From Pseudomonadales bacterium (lineage in GTDB: Bacteria; Pseudomonadota; Gammaproteobacteria; Pseudomonadales; Azotimanducaceae), in the NCBI GenBank assembly GCA_049454295.1, contig JBMTYG010000001.1, positions 17,454-81,453 on the forward strand: a stretch of 64,000 nucleotides of DNA, read 5' to 3'. This document shows, piece after piece, positions 51,755 to 56,817 of the stretch. The notes under the pieces were generated by a model. It did no database searches, was not told the DNA's origin, and saw nothing but the letters and a program-made list of their open reading frames with translations. Made by a program: the position numbers and the translations under genes. Each line of letters begins with the position of its first letter. The first letter of the stretch is position 1.

Positions 51755-53020
51755 TCAGAGACTGGCCGCAAGACGGGTCATGGCAACCCGGAATTTCGCC
51801 GGATCATAGCTGCGGTCTGTTTCGACAGTTGCGAACACCGCATCCAGCGCGCCCTGCAGGCGATCGTGGTCGCCGATGTGGTAAGACAGACTTTCAATGC
51901 CGAGAAACGCCTGCTCGGCCGCAGCGAAGTCGGTGAGCGTTCCATTCGCGCCCATCTGCCCGATTGCCTTACGCACCGCCAAGGCCTGGGCAGCGGAGGC
52001 TTTGCCCGTGGTCCAGGGCTGACTGTCGATCCAGCGCGCAAGTTCCGCTGCCGCTGTGCGCGTTGCCGGTACGCTCTGCTGCCCGGCTTTGAGATAGGCA
52101 ACCTGAAGCCGCCGCAAGTTGTCGAGCTCAGCGGGTGCAAGCACGCTGGCGACCGCCCGCAGCATATACAGATGCTGGTCCTGTAGACGCAGACCGCCAG
52201 GCTCAAGGCCCTGTTGACGCCGCTCCTCAGCCCAGCGCAGATCGTCCATCGGGTGATGACAGCTGTGGCAGTCGAAGAACGCAAAGTCTGGCACACCCTC
52301 GCGCAAGAGCGGGGTATTCAGAAGTTCGAGGTGCCGACGGGCGCTTTGCAGCTGTCCTGCGCGCCAGACGTCGAACCCACTCGGCTGCCCCTTGCGCTGC
52401 ACATAATCTTCGTCGACCCCATAGTGCGCGGGCTGATTCACCGTATACGCCTCAAGCTCGAACGATAGGCGCGGGTGGCCTGCGCCCATGATGCGGTGTG
52501 TGGCGAACTGGTTGCCGGTCCCAAGGTGACAGGACAGACAAACTTCGGCACGGACGTTGATGTCCTCGGTCGCGAGCATACCCTTGGCCAGATTGTCGGC
52601 ATGACGCGTGCCGGGTTCGGTGTGGGTTTCAAGCCAGAGCTCCGCACCCCCATGACAGGCTTCGCAGCCAACGCCGTCGGACAGCTGGAACTTGGGTCCA
52701 CGCTGCTCCGCCGGCACATTGTCGGCGTGGCAGTCGAGGCAGATCTTCGCCGTATGCGCACTCGGCAAACCGAGCTTACGCGCGATCGCCTTGGACTCCG
52801 GCGTGAGCAGTGTTTGATAGGCTCCCGAGTGCTGGTCCTCGGAAGACCAAATACGGTACTCATTCAGCCAGACGTTACTGTTCGCCTGCTCCTCCAGCTT
52901 GCCATGACACACACCGGTCGCGCAGCTCGCCACGCCCATGTGCTTGCGCGAGTCCAGCGGCTCGGCAGCGGCAGGCAGCCCCACCAGCAGCAGCAGCAAA
53001 AGCGCGGCGCGTCCCATCAC
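51755..53020 (-). CDS. Periplasmic multihaem c-type cytochrome (cytochrome c554-like N-half, helical C-half)
   Basis: Signal peptide AALLLLLLVGLPAAA. Four CxxCH (CLDCH, CEACH, CLSCH, CHSCH) plus one CX4CH-like site (CATGVCH), all in the first about 260 aa. Start GTG 53020 or ATG 53017, overlapping the upstream stop. Confidence 0.8.
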   Translation of the reverse strand: MMGRAALLLLLLVGLPAAAEPLDSRKHMGVASCATGVCHGKLEEQANSNVWLNEYRIWSSEDQHSGAYQTLLTPESKAIARKLGLPSAHTAKICLDCHADNVPAEQRGPKFQLSDGVGCEACHGGAELWLETHTEPGTRHADNLAKGMLATEDINVRAEVCLSCHLGTGNQFATHRIMGAGHPRLSFELEAYTVNQPAHYGVDEDYVQRKGQPSGFDVWRAGQLQSARRHLELLNTPLLREGVPDFAFFDCHSCHHPMDDLRWAEERRQQGLEPGGLRLQDQHLYMLRAVASVLAPAELDNLRRLQVAYLKAGQQSVPATRTAAAELARWIDSQPWTTGKASAAQALAVRKAIGQMGANGTLTDFAAAEQAFLGIESLSYHIGDHDRLQGALDAVFATVETDRSYDPAKFRVAMTRLAASL

Positions 53021-56000: not shown

Positions 56001-56817
56001 GGCCGAGCGAATTTGGCAGGCCTGTCTCTGGAAACAGATTGCTGATGTTGCGCCCGCCACGCTCGAACACGCGGAAAATGTCGCCGGGTTTAACCGTCTC
56101 CCAGGTCGGAAGCGGGTAGAGATAGGGCAGCACGCCCTTCGCTTCCATTTCATCCTTGAGCTCATCCGGCACCTTCGGTCCATAGAGAATCGAAGGCTGT
56201 CCGTCGTCGGTATAGGACTCGCCGATCATGTAATTCTTGAACGGCAAAATGCCGTTGTTATACGCGGCTCCACCCCAGAGCATGGCGCCCGTCGCATGGA
56301 GGCTGCGAATGGATGCCTCGATTATTCCTTGGTGACACGCGCCACAGGCGAGAGAAGCCACGCGATTGTCCGACGGGTTAGTGAAGCGTATGAATTCGCG
56401 CGACTCGCGGTTTAGCAGCGTGTACGTGCGTTCGGGGTTGGCGCTCGAGGGGTAATGCCAGTCATCCGGGTAGCGCGGCAGCACGTGCGCCTGTTCCTGA
56501 ATCGCCGTGTATTGGGCGCTGCCCGCGGGGACACCCTCCTTAAGGGATACACCCGCATTGCCGCCATGACAGTCAGTACAACCGAGGCGTACCGCCGGGT
56601 TTACGTGCATGGTCTTGGTATCAGACTGGGTATGGCAGGAGATGCAGCCCTCACTTTTTGCTGCCGCTTGGGCCACGGTCTGACGTTCAGGCGCGGCGGG
56701 CGCCATAACGTAATCACGCTCGACCGCCTTCGATGCAGAACTCGCCCACGCCGCCGGAAGCGCGCCGACCGTGGCGAGAACGACAACGAGACTCTTGACC
56801 AGTGTTCGTTTGTCCAT
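53017..56817 (-). CDS. 1266-aa secreted decahaem c-type cytochrome fused to a C-terminal LVIVD-repeat (beta-propeller) region
   Basis: Signal peptide [16 protein letters not shown]. Ten CxxCH between residues 58 and 785: CISCH, CTDCH, CGACH, CASCH, CMICH, CVDCH, CKDCH, CYTCH, CGGCH, CEDCH. C-terminal repeats are described in the next entry. The start codon shares 1 nt with the porin stop (TGATG). Confidence 0.85.
   Translation of the reverse strand: [1266 protein letters not shown]
53323..54216 (-). other. LVIVD-type repeat region (at least 6 repeats) of the 1266-aa cytochrome
   Basis: Residues about 868-1165: [158 protein letters not shown]. Confidence 0.7.

Follow-up and report, generated by a model that had tools for sequence, protein, structure and literature searches.

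A 64,000-nucleotide stretch of a Pseudomonadales genome (family Azotimanducaceae; GenBank assembly GCA_049454295.1, contig JBMTYG010000001.1, positions 17,454 to 81,453 of the forward strand), hereafter the window, carries a gene whose product, hereafter the head, is a multihaem c-type cytochrome with a Sec signal peptide, fused to an LVIVD beta-propeller. The head belongs to a seven-gene module that is real, widespread and without annotation, and that is classed here as a probable multihaem envelope conduit, with an unusual input on the NAD(P)H side and an outer-membrane barrel that is not of the MtrB type. Conduits of this kind are familiar mostly from anaerobes that respire metals and from organisms that oxidise iron, in which they draw on the quinone pool. 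The present module is unlike them, as it occurs in hundreds of mostly aerobic species from several classes, is conserved above the level of most enzymes, and is apparently wired to a cytoplasmic NAD(P)H flavoprotein via an iron-sulfur (FeS) chain and a dihaem cytochrome b. The reading tentatively favoured here, at somewhat less than an even chance, is that the head is docked on the periplasmic side of the outer membrane as the terminal unit of an outward, NAD(P)H-fed chain; a more limited claim, in which it acts as the last electron-transfer subunit in the seven-gene module, is much safer.

The cytochrome part of the head contains ten CxxCH motifs (at residues 58, 80, 158, 332, 389, 525, 552, 663, 674 and 780), which span 727 residues, or 72.7 residues per haem. 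A first-pass annotation, made from the sequence alone, had counted ten motifs over about 730 residues, and this count holds: 20,000 shufflings of the head gave 0.013 motifs on average and at most two, against the ten observed, and 20 of the 22 cysteines of the protein belong to CxxCH motifs. The His-rich stretches that it had seen between the haem motifs were also located (HGHGWNF and a second one). Multihaem profile models agree with this assignment, Cytochrome_C7 and Cytochrom_c3_2 both matching (the latter at 27.8 bits against a Pfam threshold of 25), and the models of known conduit cytochromes stay far under their cut-offs: the MtrC/OmcA model TIGR03507 gives 9 bits (E 0.41) against a cut-off of 209 bits, PF22113 gives E 3.3, and the MtrA/DmsE model TIGR03508 gives 13 bits against 192. 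The haem density had been described as far below that of both MtrA and MtrC, which is correct for MtrA but not for MtrC and OmcA, where ten haems are held in roughly 670-735 residues, a similar density.

The C-terminal part of the head is a propeller by repeat signature and by predicted fold. At least six LVIVD repeats had been proposed, and six are indeed readable by eye (at residues ~868, 958, 1010, 1049, 1092 and 1139), with PF08309 scoring 38.9 bits on the whole head and 46.7 bits over three stretches on the C-terminal part alone, for a threshold of 20.2 bits. In an AlphaFold2 model of residues 46-1245 built from 121 sequences (predicted template modelling score, pTM, 0.74), block means of the predicted local distance difference test (pLDDT) are mostly 80-97 over the propeller, about seven blades can be counted from the strand pattern, and a Foldseek search of the PDB with this model returned propellers only, the best being 1l0q, an archaeal S-layer YVTN propeller (E 5e-8). 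Model and fold search thus confirm the propeller. The head shares both repeat signature and fold with LVIVD/YVTN surface proteins (PF08309; 1l0q), a fold match of E ~1e-7 being generic for propellers, and the literature searched describes no LVIVD protein fused to a multihaem cytochrome. The protein had also been credited with a Pro-rich tail of about 100 residues: the last 101 residues do contain 15% proline, but residues 1166-1243 are strongly conserved and only the final 23 are variable.

More than 7900 database proteins match the head, and the best 120 of them are all full-length, 70-92% identical, and unnamed or hypothetical. When one genome per species was scanned, at least 598 genomes were found to encode a relative, and the best 80 of these, on which the locus analyses below were made, have a head that is 62-75% identical over ~1195 residues. 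An exhaustive search of cluster representatives yielded 1047 proteins at E<1e-30, with full-length relatives down to ~40% identity. Carriers are found in Gammaproteobacteria (Halieaceae/Cellvibrionales, Steroidobacteraceae, Woeseiaceae, Lysobacterales, Salinisphaerales, Methylobacter), Betaproteobacteria (Limnobacter, Usitatibacteraceae, Casimicrobiaceae), Alphaproteobacteria (Rhodospirillaceae, Geminicoccaceae, Azospirillaceae) and Acidobacteriota. Most of them are heterotrophs that live aerobically in seawater, sediment or soil, and Parahaliea maris, Spectribacter hydrogenoxidans, Limnobacter alexandrii and Oceanicoccus sagamiensis are among the isolates. For the Oceanicoccus homologue (P0048), a look-up by exact sequence returned no record. 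Two further loci, labelled Bacteroidia (L017) and Streptomyces (L077), carry a head gene that is 65-70% identical among neighbours of proteobacterial type, and for this reason probably reflect binning errors in metagenome-assembled genomes instead of true hosts.

The head is the most conserved member of its operon (24-48% identity for the membrane-anchored decahaem cytochrome and 35-58% for the cytochrome b). All ten haem sites are retained in the 120 close homologues, and still so in relatives with as little as 40% identity, the third motif alternating between CxxCH and CX4CH among distant relatives. One of these (P0132) has 28 haems, as a 21-haem module substitutes for haems 1-3, which fits an N-terminal electron-entry wire feeding the conserved haems 4-10 and the propeller. 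The family also conserves 11-12 histidines outside the motifs, by count sufficient for bis-His ligation of all ten haems.

These conserved residues bear on the possibility that the head is a catalytic multihaem enzyme (of the NrfA, octahaem reductase, HAO or cd1 type), whose nitrogen, sulfur or other oxyanion substrate would arrive through the channel. Such a role would suit the spacing of ~73 residues per haem, which is typical of enzymatic multihaem proteins, as well as the very high conservation and the substrate-channel-like barrel encoded alongside; cd1 nitrite reductase is moreover among the Foldseek matches to the propeller, and the sister ptd operon, described below, has an NrfA-family head (bioRxiv 10.1101/2023.11.21.568154). 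Nevertheless, neither CxxCK nor any other catalytic-haem signature is present in the head, the conserved histidines are already enough for ten ligated haems, and no His, Cys or Tyr is invariant in the propeller across the wider family. The head of the window matches no NrfA, octahaem (Otr/ONR), HAO or MccA model (two relatives are weakly octahaem-like, E ~1e-3), and PDB sequence searches with the head and with its 121-sequence profile found no match even at E 10. An enzymatic role is accordingly considered quite improbable. The first-pass annotation had itself named characterised enzymes as the kind of homologue that would speak for a soluble substrate, and no close homologue is one. Propeller enzymes with a metal centre (such as N2O reductase or thiocyanate dehydrogenase) were rejected on the lack of an invariant propeller His or Cys in the wider family, which also speaks against a cofactor centre of the cd1 type.

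The genes around the head, from the window end at 64000 down to 49924, all lie on the minus strand and overlap or abut, with stop/start junctions that read GTGA or ATGA. In order of transcription, a flavoprotein/FeS protein (gene 1) is followed by a cytochrome b, an anchored decahaem, an HbpS-like lipoprotein, the barrel, the head and a pentahaem cytochrome. This more informative context had gone unnoticed in the first-pass annotation. Synteny of the seven genes holds in nearly all of those 80 loci that have sufficient flanking sequence, and the co-inheritance of the seven parts is as plain as their domain content: the outer-membrane protein was found in 74 loci, the HbpS-like lipoprotein in 66, the pentahaem in 64, the decahaem in 57, the cytochrome b in 53 and the FeS protein in 52, the absences being mostly due to contig ends. 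Unbiased clustering of the flanking open reading frames of the 80 loci revealed no further widely conserved neighbour, with the exception of a PP2C phosphatase and a two-FHA protein. A neighbour locus that is 92% identical (L081) has the same organisation, with an intact gene 1 of 848 residues, a cytochrome b of 289 and an outer-membrane protein of 630. In loci of Betaproteobacteria and Acidobacteriota (L030, L032, L042, L046, L047, L051, L052, L054, L058 and L070-L072), gene 1 does not head the operon and lies ~3 kb downstream of the pentahaem gene, all parts being kept.

On the cytoplasmic side, gene 1 is cut by the window end; in relatives, the full-length protein has ~790-870 residues and no signal peptide. 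A homologue (L014:836-3322) combines Pyr_redox_2, two cNMP_binding domains and Fer4, and the PDB matches of gene 1 are HycB, PKA-R and TrxR. The N-terminal domain is a TrxR/FNR-like FAD/NAD(P)H domain, followed by cNMP domains that resemble the regulatory subunit of PKA and by a HycB/NrfC-like four-cluster ferredoxin part. A function as disulfide reductase was ruled out, as the flavoprotein domain has no CxxC. The next protein, the cytochrome b, has two H-x13-H pairs (H82/H96 and H267/H281) that fall in transmembrane helices by hydropathy and are conserved in 42 homologues. Weak matches to PF01292 (b561) are seen in 31 of 34 members (best E 8.8e-7), two of the 34 touch PF01794, the transmembrane domain of ferric reductases and NADPH oxidases (E 0.17), and the family profile gives only noise against the PDB.

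The relay would continue in the periplasm. The anchored decahaem matches Cytochrom_c3_2, Cytochrome_C7 and Paired_CXXCH_1, keeps its ten motifs in 46 of 53 homologues, and scores 31 bits with TIGR03508 (cut-off 192), so that the operon encodes no protein of the MtrA/DmsE type; its cytoplasmic N-domain is a possible docking site for a kinase/phosphatase pair or for gene 1. The 421-residue cytochrome encoded after the head has four CxxCH motifs plus a CX4CH and a helical C-terminal domain of ~200 residues; since this CX4CH is conserved, the protein is probably a pentahaem, not a tetrahaem. The HbpS-like lipoprotein scores 69.6 bits over two stretches with PF03928; in the PDB, its sequence matches members of the EfgA/GlcG family as well as a putative haem-binding protein of extracellular type.

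The input end of this chain recalls NADPH oxidases (NOX) and ferric reductases (FRE) in its working logic, with which it would share cytoplasmic NAD(P)H, a flavin, two stacked b haems and delivery outside the cytoplasm. It differs from them in a cytochrome b that is weakly of the b561/FdnI type, in a separate TrxR/FNR-like flavoprotein with an FeS wire, and in ~25 c-type haems that would extend the path. On this likeness, the module could be a regulated, NOX/FRE-like trans-envelope reductase. Its head would give electrons to O2 (yielding superoxide or peroxide), and could then be the sought-after source of the extracellular superoxide that many bacteria form, or else to Fe(III), Mn(III,IV) or siderophore complexes for metal acquisition in aerobes, whereby Fe(III)/Mn in particles or chelates would be mobilised reductively in oxic soil and seawater. 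The HbpS-like partner would suit this role, HbpS having known ties to haem and to oxidative stress, as would an acidic run in a barrel loop that could bind cations, hosts that are mostly aerobic heterotrophs, and the heavy regulation implied by two cNMP domains and the PP2C/FHA pair. It would also fit the extracellular superoxide of bacteria, which has been ascribed to a DPI-sensitive, NAD(P)H-responsive, NOX-like activity lacking an assigned enzyme (PMC13440305; PMC7035516). On the other hand, when the region ahead of gene 1 was scanned for Fur boxes in 39 loci, the best site had 6 mismatches out of 19, hence no sign of iron regulation; the cluster has no conserved iron-uptake genes nearby; by profile, the cytochrome b gives little sign of kinship with the ferric reductases, with two weak matches in 34; and ~25 c-type haems are much machinery for reducing O2. 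Both the oxidase/reductase role of the head and its wider consequence for superoxide and metals are rated as distinctly unlikely. If true, they would mean that diderm bacteria can spend cytoplasmic NAD(P)H beyond the inner membrane by a route that had not been recognised before.

The same input end speaks to the least probable of the readings weighed here, that of an inward module in which the head would oxidise Fe(II), Mn(II), reduced sulfur or humics and feed the electrons into the cell. A multihaem protein paired with an outer-membrane protein resembles Mto, Pio and Cyc2 in outline, and a lithotroph-like character is found in some of the hosts, such as Limnobacter, Spectribacter hydrogenoxidans and Methylobacter. 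Most hosts are nonetheless ordinary aerobic heterotrophs, and with an NAD(P)H flavoprotein/FeS protein resting on a cytochrome b at the inner end, inward transfer would be uphill and against the membrane potential.

The barrel bears on where the head may be located. The gene upstream had been described as encoding a barrel of 644 residues; it does encode an outer-membrane barrel and is translationally coupled to the head, but its start is most likely V19, where a GTGA overlap with the upstream stop codon gives a protein of 626 residues with a clean signal peptide. An AlphaFold2 model (pLDDT 76, pTM 0.76) shows 18-19 long strands after a periplasmic extension of ~110 residues with a Cys pair. 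Foldseek matches it to AlgE, the 18-strand alginate channel (E 3e-18), and then to OprD/Occ channels, with no MtrB-type structure among the top 50 matches. Such an AlgE/OprD-like barrel of ~18 strands is unlikely to house a cytochrome wire. One of its loops is nearly invariant in 121 homologues and opens with the acidic run DEDPYDDEDN (TGDEDPYDDEDN); it may serve as a plug or gate of the channel, or in cation binding. For the lumen, an estimate from alternating strand residues gives 12 basic and 13 acidic side chains, a near balance from which no clear charge emerges.

Under the favoured reading, the order of transfer, its direction and the location of the head can be inferred from this set of parts as follows. 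Electrons would pass from NAD(P)H to FAD, through four FeS clusters and across the inner membrane over two b haems, then onward via the anchored decahaem and the soluble pentahaem to the ten haems of the head and an acceptor at or near the propeller, along ~25 c-type haems in total. The flow would be outward, since electrons that leave NAD(P)H in this direction run downhill with the help of the membrane potential; transfer inward to NAD(P)+ would be uphill for any likely donor. The head would lie at the periplasmic face of the outer membrane and dock to both barrel and lipoprotein, a location suggested by a sole barrel that forms a narrow channel, a type-I signal without an anchor, and a conservation of the kind seen in enzymes or complexes. 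There, it would pass electrons to a small acceptor that travels through the AlgE/OprD-like channel, or give off a small product or shuttle by the same path, with the propeller as binding platform; it would not cap a transmembrane haem wire in the manner of MtrC. Tight gating of the chain by second messengers and phosphorylation is suggested by the cNMP domains, by the PP2C/FHA pair and by the weakly FHA-like N-domain of the decahaem.

Several observations weigh against this reading. Repeats of the LVIVD and 'choice-of-anchor B' kinds typically belong to surface proteins, a type-I signal is compatible with type II secretion of the head, and several distant relatives carry a lipobox instead of the type-I signal (among P0132, P0125, P0129, P0134 and P0136). 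The AlphaFold2 model, computed without haems, is of low to moderate confidence in the cytochrome part (pLDDT often <50), which was too poor there to yield any fold match. At the inner membrane, cytochromes b of the b561/FdnI type usually exchange electrons with quinones, so that the chain might tap the quinone pool instead of, or besides, NAD(P)H.

Some of these points are shared with a rival that is unlikely in its own right and corresponds to the view of the first-pass annotation, in which the head is secreted (e.g. by a type II system) and exposed at the surface like MtrC and OmcA, its propeller contacting minerals, particles or polymers and its electrons arriving via the barrel. LVIVD scores above the Pfam threshold, an archaeal S-layer propeller leads the fold matches, the head family shows weak 'choice-of-anchor B' matches throughout, some distant relatives have lipoboxes, the barrel gene lies directly upstream and is translationally coupled, and the operon encodes a lipoprotein. 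Yet the barrel is AlgE/OprD-like with ~18 strands, and no haem protein of a size to thread it is evident. The close family has neither a recognised sorting tail nor a lipobox, as its apparent lipobox matches sit within the hydrophobic stretch of the signal peptide; NCBIfam models for PEP-CTERM and other sorting signals found nothing in the relatives, including one with a hydrophobic, Arg-rich tail (P0130). The surface cytochromes MtrC and OmcA evolve fast, and an identity of 62-75% across bacterial classes is unusually high for an exposed protein. Finally, the MtrC/OmcA and MtrA/DmsE models remain far below their cut-offs, and membership of the head in either family was rejected on the mismatch of both the family models and the partner barrel.

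The periplasmic terminal unit favoured here can be compared with several known systems. The MtrCAB and other porin-cytochrome complexes of Shewanella and Geobacter likewise encode a ten-haem protein beside a barrel gene and bridge the periplasm with multihaem cytochromes. They differ in a barrel of 26 strands for MtrB against 18 for the AlgE-like one of the window, in the split-barrel domains that MtrC has where the head has its propeller, in the lipobox that the head lacks, and in an input by a CymA-type quinol dehydrogenase, in contrast to the NAD(P)H flavoprotein/FeS protein and cytochrome b found here. Another example is ExtM, a 12-haem Geobacter cytochrome of the extHIJKLMNOPQS cluster (NCBIfam NF040943) whose function is not established (PMC5877670), and the only named family collinear with the head: residues ~48-93, 515-565 and 657-785 align with positions 12-52, 258-308 and 380-502 of its model. 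The score of 57 bits for the head, and of up to 97 for its relatives, against a cut-off of 800 marks a local similarity only. ExtM, too, shares its cluster with genes for a porin-like protein and a b-type cytochrome, but has 12 haems and no propeller.

By domain content, the closest described system is ptdABCDEFG, an uncharacterised putative porin-cytochrome complex that is widespread in Alpha- and Gammaproteobacteria (bioRxiv 10.1101/2023.11.21.568154). Its components, which correspond in domain content to those of the window operon, are an FAD/NAD(P)-binding oxidoreductase and an FeS protein that binds cNMP, a ferric-reductase-like b-type protein in the membrane, a decahaem and a tetrahaem in the periplasm, and a porin. 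In ptd, however, the head PtdA is an NrfA-COG pentahaem with a beta-sandwich in place of a decahaem with an LVIVD propeller, no HbpS-like lipoprotein is present, the FAD and cNMP/FeS parts are separate proteins and not one polypeptide as in the window operon, and the gene order is different. The same kinds of parts with different heads suggest, as far as domain content goes, a shared input and relay set with exchangeable heads. The Tenderiales uet cluster and an MtrAB-like cluster of Methylobacter were set aside as different systems, and a literature lead to 'DUF336' proved false, the domain in that paper being DUF3365.

If the proposed wiring is true, the carriers export low-potential reducing power in a gated manner, which would bear on the source of extracellular superoxide in the ocean, on the aerobic reduction of particulate iron and manganese, and on the role of unexplained ptd transcripts in oxygen-deficient zones. 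Direct testing is feasible, given the cultured carriers (Oceanicoccus sagamiensis, Parahaliea maris, Limnobacter alexandrii and Spectribacter spp.).

Table. The head gene, its domains and haem motifs, and the neighbouring genes of the module, in window coordinates.
Feature	Window positions	Strand	Remarks
Decahaem-LVIVD propeller gene (head)	53017..56817	-	1266 aa; positions include stop codon
Sec (type I) signal peptide, aa 1-25	56743..56817	-	cleavage predicted after AWA (…LPAAWA|SS), read from sequence
Cytochrome domain, aa 26-805	54403..56742	-	ten CxxCH; Pfam Cytochrom_c3_2 and Cytochrome_C7
CxxCH motifs 1-5	56632-56646, 56566-56580, 56332-56346, 55810-55824, 55639-55653	-	
CxxCH motifs 6-10	55231-55245, 55150-55164, 54817-54831, 54784-54798, 54466-54480	-	
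Beta-propeller, aa ~806-1192	53242..54402	-	six recognisable LVIVD repeats, ~7 blades
Conserved C-terminal extension, aa 1193-1243	53089..53241	-	invariant RDRxVDExGxQ...R.G (FGRxGSRP in most members)
Variable Pro/Ala-rich tail, aa 1244-1266	53020..53088	-	
Gene 1, flavoprotein/FeS protein, C-terminal 245 aa	63260..64000	-	cut by window end; four Cys clusters for [4Fe-4S]; Pfam Fer4 families
Dihaem b-type cytochrome, 289 aa	62401..63270	-	integral membrane; start taken as M32 of 320-aa open reading frame
Anchored decahaem, 558 aa	60715..62391	-	transmembrane helix aa 143-161; periplasmic domain with ten CxxCH
Cytoplasmic N-domain of anchored decahaem, aa 1-140	61972-62391	-	weak FHA match (E 0.16) over full profile length
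HbpS-like lipoprotein, 674 aa	58694..60718	-	lipobox LAGC, then Gly/Ser linker; two HbpS/GlcG-like domains
Outer-membrane protein (barrel), 626 aa	56817..58697	-	type-I signal; start inferred at V19 of 644-aa open reading frame
Barrel loop, aa 457-527	57117-57329	-	70 aa; nearly invariant, opens with acidic run
Pentahaem c554-like protein, 421 aa	51755..53020	-	periplasmic; start overlaps head stop codon
CX4CH (CATGVCH) of the 421-aa cytochrome, aa 33-39	52906-52926	-	conserved in all 58 homologues
PP2C phosphatase	50964..51749	-	C-terminal transmembrane helix; 5 nt downstream of pentahaem gene; ~20-22 of 80 loci
Two-FHA protein	49924..50967	-	C-terminal transmembrane helix; start overlaps PP2C stop (ATGA); ~17-21 of 80 loci

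Beyond the seven genes, the recurrence of the PP2C phosphatase and the two-FHA protein beside the cluster in ~20 of the 80 loci suggests phospho-regulation of the conduit, and the phosphatase probably regulates the module. Just beyond this pair, the window encodes a Ser/Thr kinase and a caspase-Sel1 protein (45676-47307 and 48102-49913, both on the plus strand). Near the cluster also lies the gene of an 828-residue DUF5916 protein (43148-45634, plus strand), homologues of which, 27-30% identical, adjoin the cluster in three distant betaproteobacterial loci (L032, L052 and L058); this proximity could reflect a loose association or mere coincidence. Elsewhere (1-43000), the window holds ordinary housekeeping genes, among them those for an acyl-CoA dehydrogenase, Ppx/GppA, argininosuccinate lyase, a PLP decarboxylase, threonine synthase, an ammonium transporter, a Mg-chelatase-like ATPase, methylcrotonyl-CoA carboxylase subunits and an aminotransferase, a set consistent with the chromosome of an aerobic heterotrophic gammaproteobacterium.

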